64,000 nucleotides of DNA from an uncultured Acidobacteriota bacterium (GTDB lineage Bacteria > Acidobacteriota > Blastocatellia > Pyrinomonadales > Pyrinomonadaceae), in assembly GCA_963848875.1 (NCBI GenBank), contig CAWKFJ010000005.1, positions 2,192,305 through 2,256,304 on the forward strand. The letters run 5' to 3'. A program made the position numbers and the translations under genes. The notes under the pieces are model-generated. The model was not told where the DNA came from. It searched no databases and worked only from the letters and a program-made list of their open reading frames with translations. Positions 8,160 through 24,260 of this stretch are shown here, piece by piece. Every line of letters begins with the position of its first letter. Positions within the stretch are counted from its first letter, which is position 1.

Positions 8160-8231
8160 TTGGTTCCTCCAGAAAAAAGTGAGACAGGTTGTGGCCCGCG
8201 CCGCGCAAGGCCGGCGGCGCGGGCCTGAGGT

Positions 8232-9938
8232 TCAATACCTATAGGTCTTCGCTTTGATTCCACTCAGTTCAATGTCGCTTAAATCGGGCGGCCCAGCCGC
8301 CTCCGCCGAGGCAGTAGCGACCGCGACCCCCGCGGGCTCTGCGACCTGCCCGAGGCTTCCGGGTGCGACGACTTCAAGCATCCCCGGCGCGGCCGGCCCG
8401 TGCGTGCCGTCGGAGTTGGTTAACAACAGCGAGCGGTCCCCGAGGGCGGCGTCCTGTGCGACCGCGATTGACAGCAAGTAAAGGCGGGCGTTGGCCGAAA
8501 TCTGCCGCGAGGCCGTCACCCCGACCGTCACGCCCTCGCCGCTAAATTCAATCTGCGCACCTGCGTCTGCGAAAGAGGCGATGAGCGCGACGTTCTCCGT
8601 CGTCTTTCCCTGCTCCGCTTTCGTGACCGCGTTGGAGGTGGTGCGTGCCCTTAACAGATTCAGGTCCTGTAGTTTCTGCGGCGCAGGCAGCGGGTTCGGG
8701 TTCTCATCGACGCAGGGCTGGTGCGGCTCCGGCGGGAAGGCCGGCGACGTAAGCGCCAGGCCGCGCAGCGCTATCTGGAAAGTCTGCGCGATTTGGGCGG
8801 CGAACTGGATGGGGTTCCCTTCGATGGTGATGTCGCTGACGGCGAAGGAGACGCCGGCGTCGATCCAGGACTGCGGCAGCGCGAATCTGGCGTGGAGAAT
8901 GAAGTTCCCGGCGAAGCCCTGGATGGATTCCACGCCGCGGATAACCTGCCAGCAATCCGACGGCTGTGCGCCGGCGGGCAGGTTCGGGTCGGGCGGCAGT
9001 TCGTAAGTACTGAAGTCGGGCGTCTGAATATAGAGGCCGACCGGGTTTTGCAGCGTGGCCTTAGCCTGCCCGCCGAGGATGACGTTATTAACGCTGGCCC
9101 CTATGTGAGGGTCGCTGTTACGGCCGGGCGTTCCGTACCTACTGCACTCAATCAAGGCGCCGGGGTCCGTGACCGGCGAGCCCGGCGGGTCGTCCCGCAA
9201 GAGCGTCGCGGCCGCCGCGAGATAAATCTCGGCCCCGAGCGTGTTCGGCGGGCTGACCAAGTGGACGGCCCCCGTGGTCGCGCCGGCCGAAGGCTGGTTG
9301 TTCCATTTGTTGGTCGGGTCATACGCGGGCAGGCCCGTCGCCCTGTCGATGACCGGGGCGTTATTAGCGTCTAGCAGAAATAGGTCTTCCAACTGCACGG
9401 CCGGGTCCACCAGTTCCCTGTAGAGGGAGAGGACCGTTTCGGGGCTGACGCGCCAGAGCGTGAACCAGTATTCCGGGTTCTCGCAGGTGAAATCGACGCT
9501 GGTAATCCGGCCCGCCGAGTCCAGCGTCGAAATCCACTCGCAGTACTCGTCCTGCCAGCCGCGCGGCCCCTCGGGGCCGTAGGGCTCGCCGTCGACCGGC
9601 GGCGGCGGGCCGAACGTCCCGTCCAGGTGTCGCCCTTCGGCGAACCCCATCTGCTCCAGGAAGGAAGAGTTGTTGAAGTTGCGGAGGATGCGGTTGGGGA
9701 AGGCGACCCAGGAGATGAGCGCGGACGAGGTCGCGGCGGGCGCGTCCGTCTCCAGCGGGTTGAAATAATAGACACGGTCCTGATCGTTCAGAGAGGTCCA
9801 CGGGTCGCCGAGAATGGCCGTCTCGGTCCAGCGGTTAACGCTCTTGCTCCACTCGGCGCGTAGCGCCCGCTCTTTGTCCGGCTCCGCGGGGAGGTCGTTC
9901 TGGTTCGCGGGGGGATCGAATTGACTGAGGATAGGCAT
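8232..9938 (-). CDS. Hypothetical 568-aa protein (no family recognised)
   Basis: Track ORF 8232..10019 trimmed to ATG 9938 (AAGGAG about 7 nt upstream; the upstream gene stops at 9967). No signal peptide. The C-terminal segment is Ig-like (GDRSLLLTNSDGTHGPAAPGMLEVV). Codon usage matches the neighbouring genes. Confidence 0.7.
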   Translation of the reverse strand: MPILSQFDPPANQNDLPAEPDKERALRAEWSKSVNRWTETAILGDPWTSLNDQDRVYYFNPLETDAPAATSSALISWVAFPNRILRNFNNSSFLEQMGFAEGRHLDGTFGPPPPVDGEPYGPEGPRGWQDEYCEWISTLDSAGRITSVDFTCENPEYWFTLWRVSPETVLSLYRELVDPAVQLEDLFLLDANNAPVIDRATGLPAYDPTNKWNNQPSAGATTGAVHLVSPPNTLGAEIYLAAAATLLRDDPPGSPVTDPGALIECSRYGTPGRNSDPHIGASVNNVILGGQAKATLQNPVGLYIQTPDFSTYELPPDPNLPAGAQPSDCWQVIRGVESIQGFAGNFILHARFALPQSWIDAGVSFAVSDITIEGNPIQFAAQIAQTFQIALRGLALTSPAFPPEPHQPCVDENPNPLPAPQKLQDLNLLRARTTSNAVTKAEQGKTTENVALIASFADAGAQIEFSGEGVTVGVTASRQISANARLYLLSIAVAQDAALGDRSLLLTNSDGTHGPAAPGMLEVVAPGSLGQVAEPAGVAVATASAEAAGPPDLSDIELSGIKAKTYRY

Positions 9939-9966
9939 GTCGTGCTCCTTGTGTGCGGCCGTGCCG

Positions 9967-12063
9967 CTACTGGTTAGAGAAGGATTGATAAAGTTGACTC
10001 TTACAGGGCGCGGGGCCAAAGGGCGCCGGGCACCTGTACGCCGGCTGCGGCCTGAGCGTGCCGTCTGCGTTCATCTGGACGAAGACATTCCCGAGCGAGG
10101 TGCAGGGGAGCTGCAAATCGAATTCGCGCAGGTTGCAGACGAGTGGGTAGTTGGCGTACTGCGTCCGGCGCGAGACGGCGAGCGTCATATAGTCGTCGAC
10201 GCCTTGCGCGCCCGTGAGGCGCGAGCCGACGCTTTGCAAGTAGCTGTTAATTTGGGCCGTGCTTCTGGCGCGCCAGTCGCTCTGGTAGTAGAAGAGGAAC
10301 TGCTGCTCCGCCGTGCAGTTGAAGACTTGGCTGGTGTCGCAAGGGGGCTGATTGCTCGCGGCCTCGCCGACCAGCGCGGCGAATTGGGTCGGCGCGTCTG
10401 CCGGGTCCGGCGCTGTTTTGGCCGCGCCGATGCGCTCAGCGTACTGCATCAAGCTGGCGCGGGTCGGTGAAAATACGGGGTTCTGAAAATCAACCATTAG
10501 GACGGCGGCCACGAACTGCTGGCTCACTACCCTCTGCTGAATCAACTGCTGGATGGTCTTCGTGTCCTCGAAGGCGGGGACCGGCACGTAGAAGGCGAAG
10601 AAGGTGTCGCCGGGCTGTAGGTAATCGGGCTCGCCGTTGCCGGCCGTGTTGACCAGCGCGAAGTGGTTGCTTCTGACGAAAGCGTCGTACTCCGCCCGCG
10701 GGATGTTAAGCGGCGGGACGGCGTAGTTAAGCGCCAGCACGCCGTTGAGGGCGCTGTCGTACAGGAAGAAGTCTTTCGGCAGGGCCGTGACGTCGCCCGC
10801 CGCCTGGGTGCGCGTTTGGCTCGCGGCGAAGTTGACCGTCGTCGTCAGGATTAACCGCCGGAGCAACTCGGGCGCGCCCGACACGTCGCCGCCGCTGACG
10901 GACTTGCTCACCCAGTTGCGCGAGAAGTTGAACTGCGCCCCCTGGAAGAGCACCTGGAACTTATCTGCCCCCTGTAGGCCCGTGAAAAGCGGGTCCTGTG
11001 CGACCGCCTGCGGGACGTTGGCCGAACTGATCGCGCCTTGCGGCGAGTGCCAATTGTTCCAGGGCGGCGTCAGCTCCTTCATGTTTAGAGAGCCGTTGAG
11101 GTGACAGCCGAAACAGCCCTCCCCGGTGGTCTGCTGCCCGCGCGCGTGGGTTGAATCGCCTGCCCAACTCCAGGTCTTCACGTCGTCGCTGGAAGGGGCG
11201 TCGGAGACCTGAGAGTTGTTGACGTACTGGTAGTAGTTGAAAACCTTTTTTTGCGGGTCGAATGAGATGACCTGCAAGAACGGGGCGGGCGTCCCCGCCG
11301 GCTGAACTCCTTCCGGCGCGGCGCTCAAGAAGATGACGGGCGTTTGCCCCGCGGGTCCCCAAGCGATGACGTAACGTAAATCGCGGTTGCCGTCGCGCGG
11401 GGCGATGGAGGCGGGTACCTGGCTCCCTTCCCCTATCATGTAGCTGTTCTGTTGATAGCTGAGGTTCTGGCCCTGGGCGGCGGCGTTAATGGCATTTACT
11501 ATCTCGGTCACGCTGGCCGGCCAGACACCGGAGCCCCCCGCGTTCCGCCGTAAGACGAGCGTCGCCCACGGGTCGTTAAGCTCCGTGCCGATTTCGGCGG
11601 CCGGCATCTGCGTCATGCACCGGTCTATGCCGCGGACGAATCGGTAAATCTGGTCGGCGTTGACCGCCGGGCAAGGCTCTTCCTCTTCATCCTCCGGGCG
11701 CGCGTTGGCACTCACCGCGCGCGGGACGACCCTGCTCCTGCGGCTATATCTGTTATAGCGGACGCTGCTCACACGCAAAGCGTCCCCCCTGTAGGTGTAA
11801 AGCAGGGCGGCCACGGCCGCGAGTTCGACCAGGACCAGGGCCAGCCCTATTTTGTGTTTCGCGGTGAGTCGGGGGTAGCGTTTCGGGTGAGTCTCGTTGA
11901 CGTACCCGTTGTAGCGCCGTGCGGGTTCCGGGGTCTCATCCGTATAGATGTCGGGGAAGACCGGGAGCGGTCTCTCCTCGTCGGCCGCCCCGTCGTCCCA
12001 AAGATTCCGGGCGCGCGAGAAGTCTTTATTTTCACCTCGCTCATCGAATTGCGTGGGTTTCAT
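9967..12063 (-). CDS. Membrane-anchored hypothetical protein with a single CxxCH (haem-c type) motif
   Basis: Track ORF trimmed to ATG 12063 (GGGAGCAGG upstream). 698 aa. One TM helix (IGLALVLVELAAVAALLY) follows an N-terminal tail of about 75 aa. The large C-terminal domain contains GEGCFGCHLNG. Confidence 0.7.
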   Translation of the reverse strand: MKPTQFDERGENKDFSRARNLWDDGAADEERPLPVFPDIYTDETPEPARRYNGYVNETHPKRYPRLTAKHKIGLALVLVELAAVAALLYTYRGDALRVSSVRYNRYSRRSRVVPRAVSANARPEDEEEEPCPAVNADQIYRFVRGIDRCMTQMPAAEIGTELNDPWATLVLRRNAGGSGVWPASVTEIVNAINAAAQGQNLSYQQNSYMIGEGSQVPASIAPRDGNRDLRYVIAWGPAGQTPVIFLSAAPEGVQPAGTPAPFLQVISFDPQKKVFNYYQYVNNSQVSDAPSSDDVKTWSWAGDSTHARGQQTTGEGCFGCHLNGSLNMKELTPPWNNWHSPQGAISSANVPQAVAQDPLFTGLQGADKFQVLFQGAQFNFSRNWVSKSVSGGDVSGAPELLRRLILTTTVNFAASQTRTQAAGDVTALPKDFFLYDSALNGVLALNYAVPPLNIPRAEYDAFVRSNHFALVNTAGNGEPDYLQPGDTFFAFYVPVPAFEDTKTIQQLIQQRVVSQQFVAAVLMVDFQNPVFSPTRASLMQYAERIGAAKTAPDPADAPTQFAALVGEAASNQPPCDTSQVFNCTAEQQFLFYYQSDWRARSTAQINSYLQSVGSRLTGAQGVDDYMTLAVSRRTQYANYPLVCNLREFDLQLPCTSLGNVFVQMNADGTLRPQPAYRCPAPFGPAPCKSQLYQSFSNQ

Positions 12064-12444
12064 AATCCTGCTCCCTAGCGTCTGCTTTCGCCCGCACATC
12101 ACGCCCCGCGGCGGCGAATTTATCAACACTCACAAGAAGACCTCTGCATTGATGCGGAGGATGAATTGTGTCCACCGCGCAAATGCTTTCAAATTTGCGC
12201 CTCAACTTGTGTTATCCTCACTCTCAAATACGACAGGTTTTGTCTGATGAGTTGCAAAGACTGTCAGAGTCACCTGTGCGGCTCTTTGAAACTCTAGCTA
12301 GGCGGTTGTTCAGGGGAGTCCTGAACGTAAAAGTTAGAACACTTAAGTAGAGAACCAAATAAGATAGTGCAGTTTGGTTGTGGATGAGCAACCATTGGTG
12401 AAAATCCATAGAAGCTCCTTTCTTTAGAAAGGGGAGTCATCACT

Positions 12445-13617
12445 CTAAGAGAATCTAGAACGAGAAGCCGCCGACATTCCGGGGGCCGCCCCTTCTGAAA
12501 GGGCCATGTTGCGCCGCCGCCAAAAGGGTGACTCCGGCCAGCGAATCTCTTGCGCGTAATAGCCCGCGCGTAGTGCCACGTACTGAGAGAACGTTTCTCT
12601 GGTCTCTGCGAAGAACCTCTGAAGGGCCGACTGGTCTCCGCCCGCAAACTGCTCGTAGGCGTCGGCCAAATCAAGACCGCTTTCCAGGGCCTTGCAAACC
12701 CCCTGGGACGAAAGCGGGTCCCACGCCATCGCGGCGTCCCCGACGGCGGCCCAGCAGTTGCCCCCGAGTTCCCCGGAAATAAAACTCGAAGCGGAGGCGA
12801 CTCTCAACACGCCGGCCGGGAAATTATTCGCCGCCCTCTTCACTCTCTCGGCGGTCGCCGCGGCACTGTCGAGCGCGTCGCGCCAGACGGCTACAGCCGA
12901 AACGCCCGTGACGAAATCCGCGTCCGTCATAAAGATTGCGACGAGCCCGCCCCGAGGCATGGGGGCCGAGTACCACCAGCCCAGCTCCGTGGCCTCTATG
13001 AGCGTCCTCAGGTTGGAGGCGTCGCCGGCCTGCCCGACGTTACAGGCCAACCCCACGAGGCGGTCAAGGACGAGACCGCGGGCGCGGGAGAGGGCGCGGC
13101 GCACGGCCCCGGCGCGCCCCGTGGCATCAATGATGAAGCTTGCGCAGAGTGTCCCGGCCCCGGCGGCCAACCGCACCCGCACCTCGCCAGTGTCTTCCTC
13201 GGCGCAGGACTGCATCCGCGCCCCGCGCAGAATGCGTACGCCCCGCCGCTCCGCTTCGGCGAGGAGAGAGGCGTCGAACCGCTCGCGGTCCAGGCTCCAG
13301 CCGCACCCGTGCGGGTTAAAAAGAAAATCATTCTCATTGGCAGCCCGCGACCCCCAGTAAGAGGTAATCCCTGTCGAGGGCAGATGCCGGCCGGCGGTGA
13401 ACGCCTCCCACACGCCGAGGCGCTGGAGGACGCGGCGGCCATGCGGCGGCAAGGTCTCTCCTAATTTGACGCGCGGCGCGTTCCTGGCGGGCCGGTCCAA
13501 GAGGACGACCGCGAAGCCTTTGTCCGCGAGACGAATTGCGGCGGCGGACCCGGCCGGGCCGCCCCCGACGACGACCACATCACATCTGCCCGTGACGGGC
13601 TCACCGGTGTCGAGCAT
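12445..13617 (-). CDS. FAD-dependent oxidoreductase, LodB/GoxB-like partner of the LodA-family oxidase
   Basis: Trimmed to ATG 13617, 1 nt after the upstream stop at 13619-13621. The N-terminal Rossmann motif is DVVVVGGGPAGSAAAIRLADKGFAVVLLDR. Sitting immediately downstream of a LodA-like gene is the classical lodAB arrangement. Confidence 0.75.
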   Translation of the reverse strand: MLDTGEPVTGRCDVVVVGGGPAGSAAAIRLADKGFAVVLLDRPARNAPRVKLGETLPPHGRRVLQRLGVWEAFTAGRHLPSTGITSYWGSRAANENDFLFNPHGCGWSLDRERFDASLLAEAERRGVRILRGARMQSCAEEDTGEVRVRLAAGAGTLCASFIIDATGRAGAVRRALSRARGLVLDRLVGLACNVGQAGDASNLRTLIEATELGWWYSAPMPRGGLVAIFMTDADFVTGVSAVAVWRDALDSAAATAERVKRAANNFPAGVLRVASASSFISGELGGNCWAAVGDAAMAWDPLSSQGVCKALESGLDLADAYEQFAGGDQSALQRFFAETRETFSQYVALRAGYYAQEIRWPESPFWRRRNMALSEGAAPGMSAASRSRFS

Positions 13618-13618
13618 C

Positions 13619-15122
13619 TTAATGGGGAGGGAGCTTCCGCTCGCGTTCGACGAAGACGGTCGCCCCGGCCTGATTCGTCTCCTGGACGACGACCCCGAGC
13701 TTCCCATAATTTTTGATGAGGCCGCTGTTGCCGCTCGCCCCTGTGATCGGCTCCACCCACCGCTTCATTTGCGGCTCACTACCGACTTTGTTCGGGTCGG
13801 TGAAGACTTTGTCCGGGCGTTGGGCGGGCCACCAAGCGAGCGAGGTGTCAGTTTTGCACGCCATGAAATCGGCCTGCCACGGCACCGCGTTCCCCTCCGT
13901 GAGAATCCCCGGCTTGAGCGCCGACGCGTCTAAGCGAAAAGGTTCGGCGTAGGACTGGGGCGCGGCGATGATAAGCCCGGCCTCTATCCCCGGGAAGAAC
14001 GCGCCGCCGACGCACGCCTGTAGGGAGACGCGGTCGAGCGCTTCGGGGAGCAGCTCCGCGGGGCGCCGGCCCCTGACTGTCGAAATCACCATCGGCCCAC
14101 TGCTGGATGAAACGGTACTGAACGGGCGTCAGCGACAAAGTATCCCCGTCGTTGAAGTCGTCGTTGAGGCGCGGCAGGTGTCCGGCCACGATATCCGGGG
14201 GCGAGCCGGGCCGGCGCAGGGCGGAGAAGAACTTTTGGCGCGTCTGCGCCTCTTGCGCCGGGTCGCCCAGCGCGTCCATCTTGCTGGCGAAGTCGTTCGC
14301 GGAGCCCGGCCCGAACTGTTTGAGGAAAATCTGGTTCGTCCACTGCATCTGCACGAAGCGTTCGAGGATGGGCCGGATGTGGCGCGTGAAGGACGGGCGC
14401 GCGGGGGCGGCGAGGAAACCTCTATCCACGGCCGCCTGAAACGCCACGTCGTACCACGTGACGATGTTCTGAATCCCCGGCGCGTAATCCGGCGGCGCGG
14501 TGACGACCCAGGCGGGCTTCGCCTTATGCACGATCCCGCCCAGGGTCACGCTGGCCTCAACTATTCCGTCCGCGATGTCGTCAAACCAGTCGGGGTTATC
14601 GGCGAAGTTGACTATGCCCGCCGGCGGCTTTGAGGCGGCGTGCCCACGCGCCGGTATGAAGACGAGTCGGCCGTCATTCCCCATTGTGATCTCCCCAAGG
14701 GGCACGGTCTCGCCCCTGAACTTCCCGTCGTTGAAGGCGGCTCGGGCCGCCGGGGTGTTCAAGGTGCGGGGGCTGGGCTTGATGGCTAGGTTGGGATCGT
14801 CGTCCGAGAGCGCGCCGTTGCGCCGCCCGTTGCCGACGAGCATCGGGCCGCACGCCTTGCGGTTGGCGACCGTGACGCGCCACTCGATCGAGGCGCCGCC
14901 GGGCGTCAACTCCTGTGCGTCGGTCAGCTTGTTGTTGGCGTCTCGTTCGCACTGGAAGACCCGGAAGCGGGCCGCCTGTTTCAGGAGATTCCCGTTCTGG
15001 TCTCGGTAGGAAGCCGGCGGGGCCGCGCCCGGCTCGGGCGCAAGGAAGAAGCCGTCTGCCAACTGGCTGTCGCCCACGCGGGCGATGCCAATTGAAGGGT
15101 GAATTTCAAAGGTGGTCGGCAT
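13619..15122 (-). pseudogene. LodA/GoxA-family CTQ quinoprotein amino-acid oxidase, split by a 1-nt frameshift
   Basis: Two overlapping ORFs (13848..15122 and 13619..14092) lie in different frames, and the span of 1504 nt is not divisible by 3. The N-terminus TFEIHPSIGIARVGDS and the segment QYRFIQQWADGDF are in the first frame. ACVGGAFFPGIEAG, VPWQADFMAC and AWWPAQRPD are in the second. All of these are LodA hallmarks as I recall the Marinomonas protein. The tail of the first frame is Arg/Pro-rich nonsense. Confidence 0.75.
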
Positions 15123-15201
15123 GCAGGGTGTCCTTTCTTCGATGAATAATGGGGCGCGCCGGATTTGGAGCGAGCGGCGCGGGCGGCCGCGAGAGACGAT
15201 G

Positions 15202-16665
15202 TCAGCCGCCCTGCAACTCGTCGCCGATGATTTGACGGCGCTCGTCCACGTCAGCCGTTACACTGTCAAGGATTCCGCCGCCGTCCGAGAAATCCGGCTG
15301 CGCCCTCATCCTTTCGATCAGCCTGTCGCTGGCGTTAAGCAACTCCGAGTAGAGCCGCCAGCGATCCACTTCGCGGTCGGGCAGGGCCAGCGTATACGGA
15401 AGCTCAAAGGGGGCTCCGGCCGCAGCTATCGAGCCGGCGACCCCCTTCTTCAGGGGCAGCGAGGTGAGCTTCGACATCAGGAGAGCGATGTTCGACATCT
15501 CGTTGAAGCACCACTCGACCAGGATGCCGCGCCGGGTCGAGAAGTCCGCCTTCAGGCTCAGGGAGTGCGAAAGACTGACGAGCAGCAGGCGATACCGCAC
15601 GTTACATAATTGAGCCCAGAGCCGCGTGGTCGGGTCGGTGATTCGGCCCGACTCGCGCACCCTCTCCTCGGCCAGCTCCTCCGTCGTGAGCCCCCCTTCG
15701 GGCTCAAGCGTGGTGTTCGGATTTAGGGGGACGGGGCGCGAGGGCCGCCAAGCGACGGGCTGCCCGGCCGCCGGCGAGTCGTCCGGGAACTGCTCGTAGA
15801 TTTCGACGAAGCGGTCGAAGTGGGACGGGGCCGGGCCGCCCTCGTTGGCCAGACCTTCGCCCTGCGCCGCGATGCGCGACAGGGCGTCCACGGCGCCCGG
15901 CTGGTCTGTGATCGGCAGAATGAGGAGGTTGCCGGTGTCCCCTCCCCACTCCTCAGCCGTCCCCTGCCGGTCGTCCGTGTCGGTGTGGAAGGCCGCAGGG
16001 TCGAGCGAGCCCACGAGTGATTCCAACTGTTCGTAAACCAGCCCGACTCGATTCACCATCACATCTTCAGACTTGAGACGCCGCAAGGCGTCGGCCACGA
16101 CCTGCTCTTTGCCGGCCGGGATTTGTTCGGGCATTTCGGCGGCGACGTACTTGGCCAAAGAGGTTTTTGTCAGCGGCTCAAGGATGAAGTGGAACGGGTA
16201 GAGGTCTGAGCGGAACGGGAAATCCTCGCGCTCGAAGTTCAGAGGGCCGCCGAGAATCCGCAGGAGGTTCTGGATGGTCAGCAGGTGCGCCATCTCCTCT
16301 TTAGCTATCTGGAATATCTTCCCGAACCACGCGAGCGTCAGTTGGCCTGCGTCGGCGGGGATGTTGGTTCCGGTGAGCTTGGAGGCGACCAGTTCGAGGG
16401 AGAAAGCCGTGTAAAGGTACTGAACCATCAGGGCGTGCTCTATTTCGGCGGCCGACTGTAGCAGGAAGACGGCCTGGTCCAGAGCGGTCAGCTCGCCCGC
16501 CTCCTCGGCGGCTCCCAGGGCGGCGGCCGAGGCCACTTCCGTCATGGGCTTGAACGACGAGCGCCGCTTCGTGAACGAGGGGAGATCGAGAGTTTCGAGC
16601 GGCAGCGTGACGAAACGGCTGGACTGTGTGCGGCGCCCGATTGTTTGAAGGAGTCGTCTGTTCAT
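15202..16665 (-). CDS. Ferritin-like (di-iron four-helix-bundle) domain protein
   Basis: 487 aa. LLQSAAEIEHALMVQYLYTAFSL and IAKEEMAHLLTIQNLL give paired ExxH motifs typical of the Ferritin-like family. Shine-Dalgarno-like GGTGAGAGG precedes the ATG. Confidence 0.7.
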   Translation of the reverse strand: MNRRLLQTIGRRTQSSRFVTLPLETLDLPSFTKRRSSFKPMTEVASAAALGAAEEAGELTALDQAVFLLQSAAEIEHALMVQYLYTAFSLELVASKLTGTNIPADAGQLTLAWFGKIFQIAKEEMAHLLTIQNLLRILGGPLNFEREDFPFRSDLYPFHFILEPLTKTSLAKYVAAEMPEQIPAGKEQVVADALRRLKSEDVMVNRVGLVYEQLESLVGSLDPAAFHTDTDDRQGTAEEWGGDTGNLLILPITDQPGAVDALSRIAAQGEGLANEGGPAPSHFDRFVEIYEQFPDDSPAAGQPVAWRPSRPVPLNPNTTLEPEGGLTTEELAEERVRESGRITDPTTRLWAQLCNVRYRLLLVSLSHSLSLKADFSTRRGILVEWCFNEMSNIALLMSKLTSLPLKKGVAGSIAAAGAPFELPYTLALPDREVDRWRLYSELLNASDRLIERMRAQPDFSDGGGILDSVTADVDERRQIIGDELQGG

Positions 16666-16723
16666 AACCTCTCACCTGAAGCTTGTCATTAGCGAGCTGG
16701 CCGGGGCCCGGCCGGCTCCCGGC

Positions 16724-17830
16724 CTAACCTTCGACGTGCCCGTGTTCATGCCCATCGCCTTCGTGCTCGTGCCCGTGGGCTCCGTGCTCGTGGTCGTCCT
16801 GCTGCTTGTGCGTCACGAACATGTAAGCCAGTATCCCGAACAGCATCGGCCAGGAAAACTTCAGCGGCTCCAGCAGAGGGATAAATCTGGCCGCCAGCCA
16901 GGTCAGCCCCGTCAAGATGAAGAGAAAGGCCATGATGGCGTGCTGGCGGTTGATCAAGCCGCTCGTGCCGTGGTGATGCCCGTAGAAGATGATGCCGGCG
17001 GCGATTAACCCCGCGGGCGGCGGCGCCGCTTCCTGACGACGTTCCTCCAGGCGGACCCCCGTGACCTTATTATCCTTGATTACGGCGCTCTGTAGCGCCG
17101 TCGATAAAGAAAACCTTGCGCCCTGCCGCTCGATCTTCGCGGCTATCGGCTCGAAGATCACTTCGGCGGGCAGTCCCTTCGGCCAGCGGGAGATGATCGA
17201 GTGCTGGTCGCGCAAGACGTAGAACTGTAGGCCGCTCAGGCCGCAGGCGGCCGACACCCTGTCGGGCGTAGTGAAGTCGAAAGAGAGGATGAAAGGTTCG
17301 AGCAGCAGCTTCTGGATTTTAGGCGAGACCCCGGTGGCATCCATCAGTTGCTGGAACGAGAACCCATCGTAGCGTTGGTAATCGTAGTCGGGGTTGAAAG
17401 CCATGGCGTGAATGCCGAAGCGTATCGTCCTGACGAGGTCGCCAAAAGAGAGAAAGCTCGAACGCAAAATCTGGAGGACGAAAAATAGCGGGCTCGGCAA
17501 ATCCCAGGAGAGGGTCTGCAACGGCTGGCGCTTACCGTCTGGCGTCAACAACACAGAACCCTCGGCCTGCTTGAAGACGTTGGCAGACATCACGTCGGAC
17601 CAGCGCAGCAGCCTGTCAAAGTTGAGATAGTTCATCCACCAGCCGTGGACGCCGTGCTCAAGACTCCGCCCGCTCTCTTTGTGGCTGTTGACCTTCCCCC
17701 CTAGCAGTCCCGAGCGCTCAACGACACGGACGGGAACCCCGCTGCGGGTCAATGCCATCGCGGCCGCTAGGCCTGCCGGGCCGGTCCCGACGACGACCAC
17801 CGGGGATGAAGTACCTGTTGGGTCTGCCAT
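16724..17830 (-). CDS. NAD(P)/FAD-binding oxidoreductase N-half fused to a 3-TM segment and a His-rich tail
   Basis: 368 aa. VVVVGTGPAGLAAAMALTRSGVPVRVVERSGLLGGKV is an amine-oxidase/desaturase-type dinucleotide fold. The C-terminus has hydrophobic helices (IIFYGHHHG..., AIMAFLFILTGLTWLAARF, MLFGILAYMFV) followed by HEHGAHGHEHEGDGHEHGHVEG. Confidence 0.7.
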   Translation of the reverse strand: MADPTGTSSPVVVVGTGPAGLAAAMALTRSGVPVRVVERSGLLGGKVNSHKESGRSLEHGVHGWWMNYLNFDRLLRWSDVMSANVFKQAEGSVLLTPDGKRQPLQTLSWDLPSPLFFVLQILRSSFLSFGDLVRTIRFGIHAMAFNPDYDYQRYDGFSFQQLMDATGVSPKIQKLLLEPFILSFDFTTPDRVSAACGLSGLQFYVLRDQHSIISRWPKGLPAEVIFEPIAAKIERQGARFSLSTALQSAVIKDNKVTGVRLEERRQEAAPPPAGLIAAGIIFYGHHHGTSGLINRQHAIMAFLFILTGLTWLAARFIPLLEPLKFSWPMLFGILAYMFVTHKQQDDHEHGAHGHEHEGDGHEHGHVEG

Positions 17831-17912
17831 CTATCCTAATAATTTTCCTCTTCCGTGGAACAGCGTCATGTTGACGGCCGCTCGGCGCGGCCGGGCGCTT
17901 ACCCTCAGCCTC

Positions 17913-19490
17913 CTAGAGGACTTTGGCGAACCTCAGTAAGTCCTCGATGGTGAACTTGTTCTTCTTCCTGCCGGGGAGGGTCGGCTTCCAGTTCTTCGTG
18001 CGCAGGATGGAGTCCTCGCTGCGCCGGATGAGGCCGATGAGCACTTCGGCGACTACGGTGCTGCCGACGGGTCCCAGGCGCTTGCCCTTCCCGTGGTGCG
18101 CCGCCTCGGCCAGGACGTAGTACCAGAGCGGCGTGCGCCTCGAAAAGCCCGAGTCGCGCAGGACGTTTAGCTGGCTCTCGGCGCCGGCCGGCGCGGCGAC
18201 CTTGGCCGCGACCGCTTCGAGCTGCGCAGCCGTCATCGGCGTGAGGCCCAGGGCCCTGGCGACGGCCTGCCCCGTGGGCATCCGCAGCAGGTAGCCGCGC
18301 AGCAAATTCCTCACGGCCAGCATCGCCCCCAGTCCTTCCTCCAACTCCCCCTTGAGAGTTTTCAGCTTGAAGAGCGGATTGGCTAACTGCGTGTCGAAGC
18401 GGCGGGCGCGGTTGCGCATCTTGTCGCCGAAGAAGTTCTCCCATTGGATTATCCAGTTCTCCGGCAGCGTGTCGAAGTCGCCGAGCTGGCCGCTGAGCGC
18501 CGTGAAGACGAAGAGGAGGTCTACGGTGGCCGGCACGGTGTTCGGCTTCCCGCTCGTGTTGAAGTTGAGGTTGAAGTCGTAATCCAGCCGCACCATCGTG
18601 TGGCCGAAGCGGTAGGCCGCCACGGCGAACTCCAGGGGCATGAAGAAGGGCTCAGCCAGCCCGTCGAAGAACTTGTTCTCCTTGAGGATGCCCCTCACGA
18701 TCTTCTTGTCCGCGATGGCCGGCAGGAAGTCATTGAGGACGATGTGCTGGTAGTGCTGCCTGAGCGTCCGGCGCGCCTCGGTGAAGGAGAGCCCGCGGTC
18801 GACCAGCGCGTTGTGCGCCAGCAGGAAGGCCAGGTGAAGCTGCGCGACGATGGTGTTCTCGTCGTTGCGCGGGTCGCCGATGCGCGCGGCGCGGTCTGTC
18901 CTCTCGTCGTTGCTGCGCGGGTCGCGCGAGAGGTCGTTCAGGTCGCCCTTCTTTGGCGGCCGCTTGAAGGGAACCTGGGTGTTGTTGGGGAGGGTTGTGA
19001 CCGCCCCTACCTGCATCTTGTCGCCGACGCGGGGGGCCGGCAGGTCGTAGACGCTGTCCAGGTCCAGGGTCGCCGTGCGCGCGTTCTTCAGCTTCTGGCG
19101 GATGTCGTCGAGCGGGAGCGGGGCGAGCGCCGGGTCGAGCAGCGTCTTCAAATCCGCCGAGGTCATTTCGAGCGTGATGTCATGATCCAGGAACTGCCCG
19201 AAGTAGGTGAAGACCGCGGAGATGTCGGAGTCGCCCTCATCGTCGTTGCCCGCGGCGTCGATCATCGTCTTGCCGAGGCGGGCGAGGTCGGCCACGGTCT
19301 TGCTCGACTCGGGCAGCAGGTTGATCGGGTTGTCTTGCAGCTTGGGGAACAGGAAATCGAAGTCCTTCAAGTCCACGGGCTGTGACGCGGCGAATGCCAG
19401 CGGCACGTTGGCGATGCTCGCGGCCACGCTCTCGCGCGCCTCCTGAAACTGCTGAATGGTGATTGTTTCTCCGTGACGTAAACGTGCCAT
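17913..19490 (-). CDS. Animal-type haem peroxidase family protein
   Basis: 525 aa. The hallmark distal-His motif is FTYFGQFLDHDITLE, with a later AYRFGHTMV (proximal His region). GGAGG lies 9 nt upstream of ATG 19490. No signal peptide. Confidence 0.85.
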   Translation of the reverse strand: MARLRHGETITIQQFQEARESVAASIANVPLAFAASQPVDLKDFDFLFPKLQDNPINLLPESSKTVADLARLGKTMIDAAGNDDEGDSDISAVFTYFGQFLDHDITLEMTSADLKTLLDPALAPLPLDDIRQKLKNARTATLDLDSVYDLPAPRVGDKMQVGAVTTLPNNTQVPFKRPPKKGDLNDLSRDPRSNDERTDRAARIGDPRNDENTIVAQLHLAFLLAHNALVDRGLSFTEARRTLRQHYQHIVLNDFLPAIADKKIVRGILKENKFFDGLAEPFFMPLEFAVAAYRFGHTMVRLDYDFNLNFNTSGKPNTVPATVDLLFVFTALSGQLGDFDTLPENWIIQWENFFGDKMRNRARRFDTQLANPLFKLKTLKGELEEGLGAMLAVRNLLRGYLLRMPTGQAVARALGLTPMTAAQLEAVAAKVAAPAGAESQLNVLRDSGFSRRTPLWYYVLAEAAHHGKGKRLGPVGSTVVAEVLIGLIRRSEDSILRTKNWKPTLPGRKKNKFTIEDLLRFAKVL

Positions 19491-19546
19491 TTAAATTTAC
19501 CTCCGATAAAAAATCCACGTCGCAGCAGTCCGTTACGAAAAGCGGC

Positions 19547-19573
19547 CGAGTCAGGCCGATCCGGCCTGACTCG
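19547..19573 (-). terminator. GC-rich hairpin, possible intrinsic terminator insulating the peroxidase cluster
   Basis: CGAGTCAGGCCG / CGGCCTGACTCG form a 12-bp stem with a 3-nt loop. On the minus strand it is followed by CTTTTCG. Confidence 0.4.
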
Positions 19574-20084
19574 CCGCCTCTTTGACTATTTCAACCAACA
19601 ATCCTACGTTCTGCTCGCTAGCACTCGACCGTATCGGTTTTGCTCAGGAATTTTTTTGAAAGATTAAGAGCACTCCCTCTTGAGAGAAACGCCTGCGTCT
19701 GGCCGAAGCTGCTTCGGATGATATAAGCACGCGGGAGACGGTCAGTCCGCACGGGTTTATATTCCTGGAAACTGACCAGTAGCTTGCGCCAAGCACGCCG
19801 AGAGATTCATTGGCTGCCCTGCTCTGCAAACGTTATATGTGGTTGTGTAAGAGCGTGAGGCCAGCCCGAGGAGTTCCAGCTGGCTCAAATGCGAGAATCA
19901 AACCGAAGAAAACGCGCCGCACTTTATGCCGAACTGTTTATCAAGTCAAGCCATTTCTTCCTACAGGCAGGCCACTTTATAAATTTTGATCTGGCATCCT
20001 TCCAACTTAATACTCTTGGTGACGCAACTACTCTTCTAAAATATATGTCGCGAGAGGGTAAAACGTTTCAAGCATCCCGCGTCC

Positions 20085-20216
20085 GGTCGTGTCTCACAAG
20101 AGATGTTTGACATGGCTCTGGTACGCCTTCGAGCCACGCTCTCGTCAGATCGTCGCCTGGCTTATTGGCGAGCGGACGGACCAAAGTTGTCGGCAAAGAC
20201 ATAGAGTAGGAACTTA
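20085..20216 (+). mobile_element. IS1-family transposase (InsB-like) fragment, a remnant
   Basis: My translation SHKRCLTWLWYAFEPRSRQIVAWLIGERTDQSC matches the InsB pattern [28 protein letters not shown]. It is flanked by stops with no full-length ORF, and it sits in an AT-rich 0.8-kb spacer. Confidence 0.5.
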
Positions 20217-20291
20217 GAAATTCCATCACGGTTAACCATCTTAATCAAACCTTTAGAGAATGAGTTTGTCTATAACGTCGGTAGCGTACTT

Positions 20292-23200
20292 CTAGGGCTG
20301 TTGTAATTTTCGCTCGATTTCTCCCAGCATCTCTCGCGACTTTTGAATCTCTTCAGCCGCTCGGTCGCCGAAAGTCTCAAAGTTGCTCAGGCCGGCAGAG
20401 GCGTATGCCTGAGCGTCGGCGAGGCGGCCGTGTTTCGTGAGGATGCCGGCAATGAACAGGCGGGTTACGGCAGCGCCATGAATATCGTCCTCCATCTCGG
20501 CGTAGCGGATTGAGTACCGAAAGTGAGCCAGCGAGAGGTTGTCTTGACCCATGAAATAGTAAATGGTGCCAAGTTGGTGGTGGATCAACCCCAATGGCGC
20601 AACCTCACCTGTCGGCGTGGTGAGTCTGAGCGCGGACTGGTAAAACTTTAGAGCGGAGCTGAGGTCAGCCAGTCGTTCATCCGCGCGCCCTTCGGCGTAC
20701 GCCTCCATATAGCGTTCGTAGGCCACGCGGCCTAAGAGTGTAAAAAGTTGAGCCCGTCCTCTGGCATCCTCTTCGTCGTGAAGCCCCACACTGCGGCGCA
20801 GCCAGAGTTCCGCTTTCGCCAGATCGCGCAAGCTTGGAATCTTCAAGTGCGCGGCGCCGATGTTCGTAGCGGCGACGGCAGCCATGAAACGCTCGCCGAA
20901 CCGTTCTGCCAACGTGAATGCTTCCTCGCACACCGTCAAACTCTCCGGCTCACGACGCTCAATTTGAATCTTACCTAAAAGGTTCAGGGAGTTTATTAAC
21001 GTGCGGATGGACTCACGCTGCGTATCATCTAGCGCATCGGGCGCTACGGCGAGAGCCGCGGCCGCCTGTCGGCGTGCCAAGTCTATGCCGATGTGTTGAA
21101 GGCGCTCGGCCTCGTCTAACCGGCGAGCTTCTCTTGCAAAGCCCACGCGACTGTCATTAATAAAGAACCAGCCTCTCTCCCGGCCGGGAAGAGGGGCGTC
21201 GGTTTTTGGCTTCACAAAGTCGGCCGCGACCTCGTTCAAAAGGGCAGACCATTCGGCGCGCCGCCCCGTATGCTCATACAGGACGTCAAGTGCCTGCATG
21301 GTACCAATGATTCCGGGCTCCCAGCCGTTCTCACGCGCTAGCTGAAGGGCGTTGAGAATGTTGAATTGATCGTGGCTGAGGTAGGTGATAACGTCGCTCT
21401 TGCCGGCGGTGTAGGATTGCGCGCTCAGGCTTCCCGCTCTCCAGACCGTTTCGACAAACGCCTGGGTTGCCCTTCTTGCATCCGGGTAATACTGGTCAAA
21501 GAGCCTCTTGAAAAACCAAGGGAGCGCGGGGTGAATCGAATAGAACCCTGCACCGTGAGCGGTCAGCAACCCGACTTCGGCAGCACGGTCGAGGAGCGCA
21601 GAGCTCTCATCACTGGTCAAGCCTCGGAGCTCAGCCAGGCCCCATTCGGATTCAGGTTCACCCATCACAGCCAACGCGGCTGCGTCCACGAAGCCCTGAA
21701 AGAAATAAAGGAGGGCGAGCCGTCTGCGTTGGTCTTCGCTGAACGCGTTGTCGAAGCCGTAGCTCAATGACGCGCCCAAAGACTTCGACCGGCCTTCGCT
21801 CGCCTCGTCGTTGAATTTCGCCTCCCCGGTGCGCAGCCTGTCTACGAACTCTTCGACCTGCTCCCTCGTTTTCAGGCCGTCGAGTAAACACTGTCCGACC
21901 AGGACCGTGATCGCCAGCGGGTTCCCGACCGTGAAGCGCAGGAGCGGCAGCCAGTCCTCGACTTCGGTCAAACGCCTCCCGTGCTTCTCGGCAAGTGCCC
22001 GCGTTAGTTGTACCCGCTCCTGCATCGGCATCGGCGGCATCGTTATCCGCGCGGGCAAGTCGCCCAACCAGCCGCGCTCATCCCGTCGCGAGAGCAGCAG
22101 AATTTTCGCCTTCGTGTGCTGCGCGGCGCGCAGGAAATCAGCCAGCTCGCCCTGCTGGGCGTCGCTCCACGCCGACCGCGTGCCGGAAGGGAAGCCTGCA
22201 ACCAGTTCAACGTTATCCCAAATCCATAAGAGCGGGTTGCGGGCCATGAGGCGTAGCGCCTCGTCGCCTCGCTCCTTGTTGGTCAGCGCGTGCCATTGAA
22301 TGCCCGATCGCTCAAGCTCGTTGCCGAATGCCGGATCGATGGCGTCGTTCAACGCGGACGCCAGCGGCTTGAACCGCTCGAACGAAGTGAATAGTGCCGG
22401 GCCATTGATGCCGCCGGTAGATTGATACCAGCGAGCGAACTCGGCCGCCGTCGAGGTCTTACCGCTGCCGGCATAGGCGTGGAGGAGTACGACGTTTTTG
22501 ATGTCGAAGGCGCGGTCAATCGCGAGCAGCGTCTCGTCGCGTCCGAAGAAACCGGCGTCGGGCCGCTTCTTCAATTCGGGAGTGGGCGCGCCAGTCCCTG
22601 AAAGCGCCCTGCCGGCACTTAGATAAACTGTAGATTGTGCTTTCTCTGCCGTTCTGGGGAACAGCACGACTGGCTCGGCCTCGTATACGGCCGGCACTAT
22701 CCAGTCCTGTAGCGGCCGCGGCCGGTACGCGATCTCTCGCAACGGCTGTTCCCTGAGTTGTCTGCGGCCCAGTGTCACTGCTTCGCTTAGTGCGTGCCCT
22801 CTAGCCAGCGCCTCGTAAAGGTTGGCGACGAACTGCGCGGCGGTGATGACATAGACGTTGTACCGCATCGCCACCACGCCGGGCACGCCGGCGTCAACTA
22901 CCTCCTGCGCCAAAGAGCCAAACGCCCGCACGCGGACGTGCGCGTCCTGACTCACCGCGTCGCGCGGCGCCGTGGAGGGCGAGCCGGAACGATCAGCGCC
23001 CGTGGTCGCCGTCGCGGTCGGTTCCGGGGGCGCTTCCGCGTGCGCCGACCGGCAGGCGTTGAGTACCAGGATGGGTACCTCAGTCTTGGCGAGCAGACTG
23101 CCGAGGAAGGTCCCGTGTATGAGTTCGACGTTGTTTTGGAGCGCGGGATTCTCAAAGGTAAGGTAGCCCCGCATCTTTACAGGCGGCCGACCCGCGCCTG

Positions 23201-23924: not shown

Positions 23925-24260
23925 AGGATGACCTCAGTGTAGGAATGGCGAAACGGAGACCGGCCGTTAATATTATATACGGGCGAGCAAGCTCCCATCT
24001 CAAAATACTTGCCGCAACACAGCCCTCGCTCCATAGACACGCGCGGTCGGACAAAGTATGGCGAATTCCTCCGGCATCAACGGCGGAGAAGAGCATTGAC
24101 ACCGGCAAGGCGTAGCTATAACGTACCGCCGCTGTAATGATTGACAGGTTGCCCTGGCGCCTGCCTGTTGCTTCACGGCTGTCCACCTATCATTGGCGAA
24201 AGCAGTGGCATGAGATAACACGCCAGTTTGTCGTACTGCATTACTGCTTGAGTAATCTGT

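Follow-up and report, generated by a model that had tools for sequence, protein, structure and literature searches.

The lodAB and goxAB genes of Marinomonas mediterranea encode a lysine epsilon-oxidase and a glycine oxidase, both dependent on cysteine tryptophylquinone (CTQ) and each accompanied by a flavoprotein maturase. LodA-like operons of group ID carry tyrosinase and multicopper oxidase genes, and a PF12902 ferritin-like gene has already been noted near five fungal lodA-like genes (Campillo-Brocal et al., 2015; PMC4417212). Catalase-LodA fusions tie a LodA-family oxidase to an H2O2-handling haem domain (PMC4417212; bioRxiv 10.64898/2026.03.27.714854). We did not find a published description of LodA/LodB grouped with a ferritin-like protein and a peroxidase, and the earlier note on this DNA likewise knew of no described bacterial operon of exactly this composition. 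Such a group lies in the window (the whole stretch of 64,000 nucleotides analysed here), which comes from a soil bacterium. The ferritin-LodA-LodB grouping turns up again in numerous uncultured bacteria, where the type of peroxidase varies. We consider it about an even chance (roughly 0.5) that the PF12902 ferritin-like protein, the short LodA/GoxA-family oxidase and the LodB-type flavoprotein form a conserved oxidative cassette whose H2O2 is used by a partner peroxidase.

Five neighbouring genes are found on the minus strand, separated by 82, 58, 79 and 1 nt (Table 1), the spacing given in that note. The lodB ORF spans 12445-13707, with a likely start at ATG 13617, and the 1-nt gap separates this codon from the second lodA ORF, whose stop is at 13619. 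The lodA-lodB spacing is identical in the orthologous locus L002. Chance does not account for this arrangement: unrelated loci, from metagenomes as well as genomes, keep the genes in the same order. Pfam and NCBIfam support every family originally assigned except the "membrane flavoprotein". The LodB-type protein scores 225.8 bits against the LodB model, 223.1 bits against GoxB and 187 bits against QhpG in NCBIfam, and matches FAD_binding_3 and Trp_halogenase in Pfam. A LodB-like gene comes after LodA in most of 80 genome loci.

Table 1. Features of the cluster and its possible extensions (positions in the window).
Feature	Position	Strand	Basis
Possible extension, DUF8225-like protein	8232..9938	minus	phmmer: L018 (4e-53), L086 (3e-41)
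Possible extension, up to 720 aa, no family	9967..12129	minus	translation
Flavoprotein of LodB/GoxB type (CTQ maturase family), 390 aa counted from ATG 13617	12445..13617	minus	NCBIfam, Pfam
Gene of a short CTQ oxidase of the LodA/GoxA family, read-through length ~501 aa	13619..15122	minus	LodA_N, LodA_C
CTQ active-site codons: Asp 13868-13870, Cys 13856-13858, Trp 13829-13831	13829..13870	minus	alignment to LodA 3weu
Frameshift, 2-nt deletion relative to orthologue L002	~14059..14061	minus	DNA alignment of window, L002 and L001
PF12902 ferritin-like protein, 487 aa	15202..16665	minus	Pfam, E 6e-32
Chimeric ORF, 368 aa	16724..17830	minus	HpnE and Amino_oxidase profiles, N-terminal half only
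Conserved 3' end of chimeric ORF, short transmembrane-like peptide with HEHGH-rich tail	16724..16882	minus	tblastn, DNA alignment
Haem peroxidase, peroxidase-cyclooxygenase ("animal haem peroxidase") superfamily, 525 aa	17913..19490	minus	Pfam PF03098 (An_peroxidase), E 9e-18

Two genes downstream may extend the cluster. The nearer one lies at least 315 nt from lodB, and its product has an N-terminal membrane anchor and a single CFGCH motif of the haem c type (CxxCH at residue 339). It had no match in Pfam, NCBIfam or the PDB, and no homologue in any of the fetched loci. The product of the second shares common motifs with DUF8225 relatives, at 30-37% identity over ~420 aa, and DUF8225+DyP adjoins the ferritin-LodA core in four other loci (L018, L086, L111, L165/166).

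The oxidase gene is split between two frames, in ORFs 13848-15122 (424 aa) and 13619-14092 (157 aa). LodA_N (2e-49) falls on the first ORF and LodA_C is divided across both, with a match of 1.6e-19 on the second. The suspicion that lodA is broken is borne out by the alignment with L002, in which the window reads GCGCCCC-GCGG against GCGCCCCCGGCGG. No public reads or contigs spanning positions 14059-14061 were found, and the nine close homologues of the protein (501-505 aa) are all intact. Because the oxidase gene bears this deletion, the cassette is probably inactive in this genome, unless the deletion is an assembly error. All three CTQ codons are downstream of the frameshift. The Cys and Trp on which the assignment to CTQ enzymes turned are present, together with the Asp: WQADFFNC (Asp512, Cys516) and yWWPPQSP (Trp581) of LodA 3weu align with WQADFMAC and AWWPAQRP in the window, and D419, C423, W431 and W432 are invariant among 34 members of the family. 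The locus resembles lodAB and goxAB in its LodA_N and LodA_C domains, in its CTQ residues and in having the flavoprotein gene directly after the oxidase. It differs in that the oxidase is ~501 aa long, rather than 726 to 816, with a Cys-Trp spacing of 9 residues rather than the 65 of LodA. Furthermore, the gene is frameshifted and preceded by ferritin-like and peroxidase genes, and its product scores far below the equivalog cut-offs (173 bits for the GoxA model, 103 bits for LodA).

The "membrane flavoprotein" does not hold up as a member of the cluster. Residues 1 to ~265 make up the FAD-binding, N-terminal half of a flavoprotein of the phytoene-desaturase/HpnE/amine-oxidase type, and residues ~270 to 368 consist of hydrophobic segments plus a His-rich tail. 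The profile matches cover positions 1-246 of 430 in HpnE and 2-199 of 443 in Amino_oxidase, and in the best PDB match, 5mog (497 aa), only residues 10-251 aligned, to 19-260. The C-terminal half was sought in other frames and not found. The flavoprotein gene is absent from L002, the closest relative. The 3' end does have a counterpart there: residues 317-344 are 86% identical to L002 2493-2576 in tblastn, and the counterpart is a separate 33-aa ORF (2499-2600) reading MFEPLKFSWPMLFGILAYMFITYKQQDGHEHGH. Since the 368-aa ORF is a truncated fragment, fused to a small conserved ORF, and is missing from the closest relative, it is probably a gene remnant and outside the system.

The ferritin-like protein has two ExxH motifs (E74-H77 and E124-H127) that are invariant in an alignment of 45 sequences, as are additional Glu and His residues; its first 56 aa are disordered. 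Structurally, its AlphaFold model (pLDDT 83) is matched best by 3hl1, a ferritin-like protein that is uncharacterised, with Dps and bacterioferritin next. It also matches the VioB model TIGR04492 locally (positions 570-747, E 8e-13). It is probably an enzyme of the di-metal kind and has one part of VioB as a relative; VioB is a protein that acts downstream of an amino-acid oxidase and for which catalase activity has been reported (PMC9705886).

The peroxidase aligns with lactoperoxidase 8s6c over the distal and proximal motifs, and its key residues, Gln99, Asp102, His103 (distal), Arg208, Glu211 and His297 (proximal), are 99-100% conserved among 120 homologues. The alignment and this conservation place an Asp and a Glu at the haem ester-link positions; in halide-oxidising mammalian peroxidases Asp and Glu form these links. 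The orthologue in L002, at the equivalent position, is 90% identical.

The neighbourhood is conserved in relatives: the core of ferritin-like, LodA and LodB genes recurs widely. In the close clade (the window, L001, L002, L085, L086, L087, L171 and L172/173) the ferritin-like gene is immediately upstream of LodA at all eight loci, and in a ferritin-anchored metagenome sample 51 loci reach far enough downstream, of which 28 have a LodA-like gene. A peroxidase stands beside the core in ~20 loci from at least nine ferritin lineages. Close homologues of the peroxidase in the window, at 71-75% identity, are found on their own in other places, not beside LodA. The peroxidases beside the core are of four kinds: vanadium haloperoxidase, DyP accompanied by DUF8225, and two animal-type haem peroxidase subfamilies that are distant from each other. 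Among members of the window's clade, whose ferritin-like proteins are 72-78% identical, the type of partner varies: it is An_peroxidase in the window and L002, DUF8225+DyP in L086 and, in L001, a vanadium bromoperoxidase that matches PDB 1qhb at E 2e-87. In L106, L111, L117/L119 and L121 the ferritin-like gene is immediately preceded by a member of the other An_peroxidase subfamily (~34% identity). DyP is found in L018, L131, L146 and L165/166, and vanadium haloperoxidase in L033, L164 and L170. In L009 an An_peroxidase of the other subfamily lies ~1.2 kb upstream of LodA and the ferritin-like gene is absent.

The peroxidase is an accessory rather than an obligate partner, because ~74 of 80 genome LodA loci and most ferritin+LodA loci have none nearby. 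Where a ferritin+LodA locus extends 2 kb or more upstream, a peroxidase was found in 7 of 23 cases, and enrichment estimates of this kind come from small samples, short contigs and home-made HMMs. Other neighbours of LodA include tyrosinases, multicopper oxidases and galactose-oxidase-like proteins, so the theme common to LodA neighbourhoods may be broader than an H2O2 relay.

The cassette we propose would work as follows, in the cytoplasm by prediction; no N-terminal signal or Tat peptides were seen by eye on any core protein. LodB would turn the oxidase's conserved Cys and Trp into cysteine tryptophylquinone. The oxidase would then act on a primary amine, which may be an amino acid, and release ammonium and H2O2 along with an aldehyde or imine. 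The H2O2 would serve the dedicated, co-encoded peroxidase as oxidant, yielding hypohalous acid or a halogenated or radical-coupled compound. The ferritin-like protein may act on the carbonyl or imine product, or on peroxide. Replacement of the peroxidase by non-homologous types beside one core strengthens the case that H2O2 source and user belong together and supports a functional H2O2 link from oxidase to peroxidase.

The same genes could instead serve self-protection, which we consider unlikely. The LodA-like enzyme would then catabolise amines or amino acids for nitrogen, and the peroxidase and a Dps- or rubrerythrin-like ferritin-like protein would only detoxify, removing toxic cytoplasmic H2O2 and preventing Fenton chemistry. 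Dps and bacterioferritin, to which the ferritin-like model is structurally near, use up H2O2 while oxidising iron. The DyP partners are general peroxidases, the core proteins have no visible signal peptides, and catalase-LodA fusions have been read in the same way (bioRxiv 10.64898/2026.03.27.714854). However, the vanadium haloperoxidases of L001, L033, L164 and L170 yield hypohalous acid, which is more reactive, and this is no detoxification. To our knowledge, these enzymes are known only to oxidise halides with H2O2. The window peroxidase carries the halide-oxidising signature residues, and the transporter, aminotransferase and aldehyde dehydrogenase genes of a catabolic operon are not conserved around the core.

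A role in small-molecule biosynthesis, as in VioA/VioB, RebO/RebD and StaO/StaD, seems to us quite improbable. The oxidase would make a reactive imine or aldehyde, which the PF12902 protein and the peroxidase would couple, cyclise or halogenate to a pigment or secondary metabolite. The ferritin-like protein matches the VioB model over 160 residues, an amino-acid oxidase accompanied by a PF12902 protein is also the pattern of VioA-VioB, the predicted location is the cytoplasm, and LodA genes elsewhere are fused or adjacent to oxidative tailoring-type enzymes (haem-oxygenase-like iron enzymes of PF14518, tyrosinases, multicopper oxidases and vanadium haloperoxidases). The VioB match, though, is only partial, at 47 bits against a cut-off of 1250, and the surroundings of the core hold no further conserved genes for biosynthesis, resistance, regulation or export.

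It is very unlikely that the genes encode a secreted or lysis-released antimicrobial couple, in which amino-acid-derived H2O2 would give hypohalite or hypothiocyanite and kill competitors. Antimicrobial action through H2O2, exerted outside the cell although classical signal peptides are lacking, is established for characterised LodA and its relatives (PMC4417212), and the partners here are of the haloperoxidase type. Against this, signal and Tat peptides were not seen, no secretion or immunity gene is conserved around the core, and nothing in the data is specific to antagonism. Of the oxidase/peroxidase couple in the earlier note, the pairing of H2O2 source and user is thus retained and the antimicrobial role is not. 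Chance adjacency without joint function, with the cluster of this genome as decaying debris, suggested by two lesions within 4 kb (the broken lodA and the truncated flavoprotein gene) and by a peroxidase subfamily usually found alone, is scarcely tenable and largely refuted for the family, since the order peroxidase, ferritin-like, LodA, LodB is kept with intact genes in L002 and in L106, L111 and L119 (ferritin identity 37-42%), and peroxidases of unrelated folds take the identical position.

The proposed H2O2-relaying cassette shares parts with several known systems. Like the loci of Campillo-Brocal et al. (2015), it has a LodA-like/LodB-like pair among other oxidases, and tyrosinase and multicopper oxidase neighbours were seen here too; that paper does not use the word "peroxidase" and describes neither a bacterial ferritin-LodA-LodB core nor exchange of peroxidase type (PMC4417212). 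In catalase-LodA a LodA-family oxidase is likewise physically tied to an H2O2-consuming haem enzyme, but as a fusion that suggests detoxification, whereas the cassette has separate peroxidase genes, including haloperoxidases that oxidise a second substrate. The qhp operon of quinohemoprotein amine dehydrogenase shares the CTQ cofactor and a QhpG/LodB-type flavoprotein. It has the radical-SAM protein QhpD, and the window has no radical SAM enzyme, haem subunit or separate gamma subunit. Among ferritin-linked LodA-like loci, those of one distant branch do encode a radical SAM/SPASM enzyme. VioA/VioB, RebO/RebD and StaO/StaD also set an H2O2-releasing amino-acid oxidase beside a protein with a PF12902-type region, but their oxidases are flavoproteins and the window's is a quinoprotein; VioB is ~1000 aa and binds haem b, and the 487-aa ferritin-like protein matches only part of it. 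With the animal couples DUOX-lactoperoxidase and NADPH oxidase-myeloperoxidase the analogy is functional only: each pairs an enzyme dedicated to making H2O2 with a peroxidase, as proposed here. The peroxidases belong to one superfamily, and that of the window has retained the distal His and Arg as well as the Asp and Glu of the haem links. The enzymes that supply H2O2 are unrelated, and signs of secretion, or of a part in host defence or antimicrobial action, were not found.

The window carries the five minus-strand ORFs that the earlier note had described, with gaps of 82, 58, 79, and 1 nt, and Pfam and NCBIfam profile searches agreed with its families for the peroxidase, ferritin-like, LodA, and LodB proteins. 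Promoter-like sites were slightly above chance in a promoter scan (5 vs. 1.9 ± 1.3 in shuffles), and a terminator scan gave no more terminator-like sites than chance. A search for RNA-seq runs turned up none. An Rfam search of window positions 7000-24500 and of nine related loci found no credible riboswitch as a clue to the substrate.

Features of the cluster, its surroundings, and the genome and metagenome loci compared with it (L-numbers; L002 is the closest relative)
Locus	Feature	Position	Strand	Description
Window	Peroxidase ORF	17913-19490	-	525 aa; An_peroxidase E 9e-18 (Pfam)
Window	"Membrane flavoprotein" ORF	16724-17830	-	368 aa
Window	Small HEHGH-tail ORF	16724-16882	-	Hydrophobic peptide, HEHGH-rich tail
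L002	Small HEHGH-tail ORF	2499-2600		Hydrophobic peptide, HEHGH-rich tail
Window	Ferritin-like ORF	15202-16665	-	487 aa; PF12902 E 6e-32 (Pfam)
Window	lodA-like gene, split	13848-15122 + 13619-14092	-	Two ORFs; 501 aa if read through
Window	lodB-like ORF	12445-13707	-	Probable start codon: ATG at 13617
Window	Two possible extension genes	8232-12129	-	Gap to lodB at least 315 nt
Window	Second extension gene	8232-9938	-	DUF8225-like, 569 aa
Window	Gene after the DUF8225 gene	7167-8159	-	330 aa; weak Nal1_C match
Window	Conflict-type genes	20292-23924; 24261-27977; 3451-4494; 59890-61455; 51473-57886	-; +; +; +; -	See text
L007	Homolog of the 330-aa protein	8542-9915		Acidimicrobiia genome; E 2e-16; DUF5648 domain; directly upstream of LodA
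L003	OLD-family TOPRIM ATPase, UvrD helicase, ferritin-like, start of LodA gene	4676-10180		Resolvase and relaxase nearby
L085	PLD-like (PLDc_2)	157-1845		Directly upstream of ferritin-like
L117	PLD-like (PLDc_2)	5023-6786		Directly upstream of ferritin-like
L119	PLD-like (PLDc_2)	4984-6747		Directly upstream of ferritin-like
L111	DyP and DUF8225 genes, apparently in pieces	11498-13062	-	383, 174, 199 aa; convergent; 64-kb contig
L002	Cassette			An_peroxidase, ferritin, LodA (intact), LodB
L001	Cassette			Vanadium bromoperoxidase (E 2e-87 to PDB 1qhb), ferritin, LodA, LodB
L086	Cassette			DyP + DUF8225 (divergent), ferritin, LodA
L085	Cassette			PLD-like, ferritin, LodA, LodB
L087, L171, L172/173	Cassette			Ferritin, LodA
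L106, L111	Cassette			Peroxidase-ferritin-LodA-LodB
L117, L119	Cassette			Peroxidase-PLD-ferritin-LodA
L165/166	Cassette			DUF8225-DyP-ferritin-LodA-LodB
L131, L146	Cassette			DyP
L164, L170	Cassette			Vanadium haloperoxidase

The membrane flavoprotein, which had been counted as a fifth cluster member, was not borne out. Flavoprotein similarity is confined to the first ~250-265 residues of its ORF, which matches positions 1-246 of 430 in the HpnE model, 2-199 of 443 in Amino_oxidase, and residues 19-260 of 497 in the phytoene desaturase 5mog. This is the N-terminal half only of the two-part flavin amine oxidase/phytoene desaturase/HpnE fold (~430-500 aa), and no C-terminal half was found in other frames; the remainder of the ORF is hydrophobic with a tail rich in HEHGH. 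L002, whose peroxidase is 90% identical, lacks the flavoprotein gene; residues 317-344 alone have a counterpart there, in a 33-aa ORF. None of the other loci compared has the gene. Because half a fold is present and the gene is missing from L002 and the other loci, we conclude that the ORF probably consists of a truncated gene joined in frame to a small ORF and does not belong to the system. The small ORF lies between the peroxidase and ferritin-like genes, free-standing in L002 and, in the window, continuous with the fragment of the flavoprotein. It was not seen in more distant loci, e.g., L106, where the peroxidase-ferritin gap is 4 nt.

Conservation of the neighborhood in relatives had been named as a test, and our survey found a core of PF12902 ferritin-like protein, short LodA/GoxA-type oxidase, and LodB-type flavoprotein recurring with or without a peroxidase. 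Close relatives were found via exact-protein look-ups. In this close clade the ferritin-like gene is directly upstream of LodA in 8/8 loci, and a peroxidase is present in four of the five loci with visible upstream sequence. The peroxidases have three different folds, and the ferritin-like proteins are 72-78% identical. A second survey covered 80 genome loci anchored on LodA. A LodB-like gene adjoins LodA in most of these, a ferritin-like gene occurs in 9 to 10, a tyrosinase in eight, a DyP in three, and an An_peroxidase in two (L009, ~1.2 kb upstream of LodA, and L012, ~7 kb away). A vanadium haloperoxidase directly follows ferritin-LodA-LodB in L033. Pfam families among 65 upstream LodA neighbors included multicopper oxidases (7), galactose-oxidase-like proteins (6), subtilases (4), and cupins (3). 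For the third survey, the ferritin-like protein served as the anchor in 80 metagenome loci. A LodA-like gene was found in 28 of the 51 loci with enough downstream sequence, and a peroxidase in 7/23 loci that have both ferritin and LodA and 2 kb or more of upstream sequence. At ~34% identity to that of the window, the haem peroxidases of these loci represent another subfamily. When the ferritin-like proteins were clustered at 55% identity, the cassettes with a peroxidase were spread over at least nine clusters. Clustering of every ORF in 32 peroxidase/core loci revealed no other conserved partner (transporter, regulator, or immunity gene). Since most LodA loci lack a peroxidase, the peroxidase is accessory. 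In L117 and L119 the PLD-like gene separates the haem peroxidase gene from the ferritin-like one. The apparently fragmented DyP and DUF8225 genes of L111 may reflect decay of a redundant second peroxidase.

The window peroxidase belongs to the peroxidase-cyclooxygenase superfamily (64.5 bits against a Pfam gathering cut-off of 25). His103 (distal), Arg208 (catalytic), and His297 (proximal) are each 100% conserved in 120 homologs. Gln99, Asp102, and Glu211 are also kept, all six key residues being 99-100% conserved, and their positions correspond to the motifs of lactoperoxidase. The haem ester links that go with halide oxidation in mammalian peroxidases are made by the matching Asp and Glu. 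The protein therefore carries the residue signature of the halide-oxidizing, covalent-haem subgroup, the haem bonds and halide oxidation themselves being predictions. Homologs at 60-75% identity are very common, e.g., in Pyrinomonadaceae, cyanobacteria, and Myxococcales, and the top named relatives are Pyrinomonadaceae (68-73%). Neither of two homologs inspected adjoins a LodA gene.

The oxidase gene has LodA_N (PF17990, E 2e-49) on its first ORF and LodA_C (PF18417, E 1.6e-19) on its second, with a fragment of LodA_C also on the first (Pfam). Its reading frame is interrupted, unlike the uninterrupted frame expected of the LodA/GoxA family. Alignment of the window DNA with two orthologous loci placed a 2-nt deletion in GCGCCCC^GCGG, at ~14059-14061. 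The undeleted form of the site would be CCCCCGGCGG, and L002 has GCGCCCCCGGCGG. Nine close homologs (55-86% identical) are all intact at 501-505 aa. The earlier note would have given up its reading had the Cys and Trp of the cysteine tryptophylquinone (CTQ) cofactor been missing; both are present in an alignment with the LodA crystal structure (3weu). LodA Asp512 and Cys516 align to the Asp and Cys of WQADFMAC, and Trp581 to the second Trp of AWWPAQRP. All three are invariant in a 34-sequence subfamily alignment. Their codons (13829-13870) are downstream of the frameshift, and as assembled the first ORF would encode none of the three. The window region is present in one soil-metagenome run at ~2-3x, with no read or contig across 14059-14061. 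Other very long ORFs of the window are intact (2137, 1238, and 1210 aa), which argues against a generally error-ridden assembly; a genuine mutation is for this reason somewhat more likely than an assembly error. Programmed frameshifting is unlikely, as a slippery sequence is absent and every homolog is in one frame. Two-gene LodA-like proteins exist in a distant branch. A natural split was rejected for the window because the break is inside the LodA_C domain, and we read it as a lesion.

The window oxidase scores far below the NCBIfam equivalog cut-offs for glycine oxidase (GoxA, 173 bits vs. 750) and lysine epsilon-oxidase (LodA, 103 bits vs. 600). It belongs to a short LodA-like subfamily (~500-520 aa, >2500 matches) found in Actinomycetota, Acidobacteriota, Planctomycetota, Verrucomicrobiota, cyanobacteria, and others, and its closest genome match is only 47% identical. 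The lodB-like gene begins 1 nt downstream. Its product matches the NCBIfam LodB, GoxB, and QhpG models at 225.8, 223, and 187 bits, the first over positions 1-361 of 361 and against a cut-off of 400, and carries FAD_binding_3 and Trp_halogenase domains. Domains, CTQ residues, and the adjoining lodB-like gene place the oxidase in the LodA/GoxA family, with predicted H2O2-releasing amine oxidase activity.

The ferritin-like protein matches the entire PF12902 profile (1-221 of 221, 111.7 bits), a large family with at least 861 matches. A 45-sequence alignment has two invariant ExxH motifs, E74-H77 and E124-H127, plus other invariant Glu and His residues. The AlphaFold model (pLDDT 83) is helical with the first 56 residues disordered; its closest structural match is 3hl1, an uncharacterized ferritin-like protein, followed by Dps and bacterioferritins. 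A PDB sequence search returned no solved structure. Profile, modeled fold, and candidate metal ligands thus mark it as a PF12902 ferritin-like protein. One branch of the family lies near tyrosinase genes, mostly without LodA (L004, L093-L097, L148, L155), in the order tyrosinase(-HEAT)-SCO1/SenC-ferritin-like in L004 and L148. The oxidase partner thus seems to vary across the family. Fusions of LodA-like proteins to a C-terminal Haem_oxygenas_2 domain (PF14518, iron-containing redox enzyme) occur among L026, L046, L075, and ~15 other Streptomyces/Actinoplanes/Bryobacteraceae loci, L023, L025, and L066. The same set includes LodA with a C-terminal VWA domain and long ORFs in which LodA is combined with multicopper-oxidase and galactose-oxidase-like domains. 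Homology between the ferritin-like protein and the haem-oxygenase-like domain of the actinomycete LodA fusions was rejected (hhalign probability 1.4%).

Two further same-strand genes downstream of lodB may extend the cluster. The product of the first (up to 720 aa) has a membrane anchor and one motif of haem-c type, CFGCH; it has no family match, and a PDB sequence search found nothing. DUF8225 relatives of the second accompany DyP beside ferritin-LodA cores in L018, L086, L111, and L165/166, which suggests that the DUF8225-like gene may be linked to the window cassette. The surroundings of the cluster are rich in conflict-type genes: two divergently oriented paralogs for CHAT-AAA(-TPR) STAND proteins and one gene each for a protein with a caspase domain, a TIR-AAA_35 protein, and a subtilase-RHS protein of 2137 aa. 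In L003 the ferritin-like gene and the start of LodA directly follow the OLD and UvrD genes, a Gabija-like pair. With a resolvase and relaxase also nearby, some core copies may travel on mobile or defence islands.

Peroxidases of unrelated folds repeatedly adjoin the three-gene core, mostly co-directionally, and this is best accounted for by selection for a peroxidase that acts together with the oxidase, linking an H2O2 producer to an H2O2 consumer. Vanadium haloperoxidases use H2O2 only for halide oxidation. This chemistry and the halide-oxidizer residues of the window peroxidase favor productive use of peroxide over simple detoxification. Our boldest reading, to which we give a probability of only about 15%, is that the core and its interchangeable peroxidase form an undescribed, widespread soil-bacterial system. 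A protein-quinone amine oxidase would pass its carbonyl/imine product and H2O2 to a VioB-like di-metal protein and a (halo)peroxidase. The outcome could be a defined halogenated or cross-linked product. It could also be an intracellular oxidative burst, an effector in the conflict-gene islands that house some copies, such as the CHAT/caspase STAND genes of the window and the Gabija-like pair of L003.

An attractive alternative is a role in biosynthesis, as in VioA/VioB. There, the amino-acid oxidase VioA produces an imine that serves as the substrate of VioB, and catalase activity has been reported for VioB (PMC9705886). The ferritin-like protein has a local match to the NCBIfam VioB model (positions 570-747, E 8e-13), at 47 bits against a cut-off of 1250, and falls short of the full-length VioB/StaD/RebD imine-dimer synthases (~1000 aa). 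A protective, detoxifying role is kept alive by catalase-LodA fusions (PMC4417212; bioRxiv 10.64898/2026.03.27.714854) and the Dps-like fold of the ferritin-like protein, against which stand the vanadium haloperoxidases and the peroxidase signature. The pairing of an H2O2 source with a user, as proposed in the earlier note, gains support from recurrent adjacency; the antimicrobial role given to the couple is possible, since LodA acts outside the cell without a classical signal peptide (PMC4417212), but unsupported, because inspection by eye found no hydrophobic or Tat-like N-termini on the core proteins and export and immunity genes are not conserved.

The interest of the cassette is moderate, and is tempered locally by the broken oxidase gene. 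To our knowledge, LodA and GoxA are the sole characterized members of a very large quinoprotein oxidase family, and the short subfamily has thousands of members in soil metagenomes. The pattern of a constant PF12902 partner and a repeatedly swapped H2O2-using partner of three unrelated folds offers a testable handle on what these short enzymes are for. It also gives a functional context to the uncharacterized PF12902 family, which has a region in common with the poorly understood VioB/StaD/RebD enzymes. If the halogenating chemistry is true, the cassette would amount to a self-contained haloperoxidase system of bacteria that generates its own H2O2, needs only amine, oxygen, and halide, and is relevant to biocatalysis.

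Full-text literature searches turned up neither a published LodA-peroxidase or LodA-haloperoxidase cluster nor a published ferritin-LodA-LodB core in bacteria. Published accounts cover lodAB operons, the association with tyrosinase and multicopper oxidase, a ferritin-like neighbor in fungi, and the catalase fusions (PMC4417212; bioRxiv 10.64898/2026.03.27.714854). A second, distant cassette of ferritin-like protein, very divergent LodA-like protein (one of ~730 aa, or split as ~460 + 300 aa), radical SAM/SPASM enzyme, and LodB-like flavoprotein occurs in metagenome loci L106, L113, L115, L119, L123, L133, L143, L146, L156, L159, and L165. Its maturation set resembles that of quinohemoprotein amine dehydrogenase.
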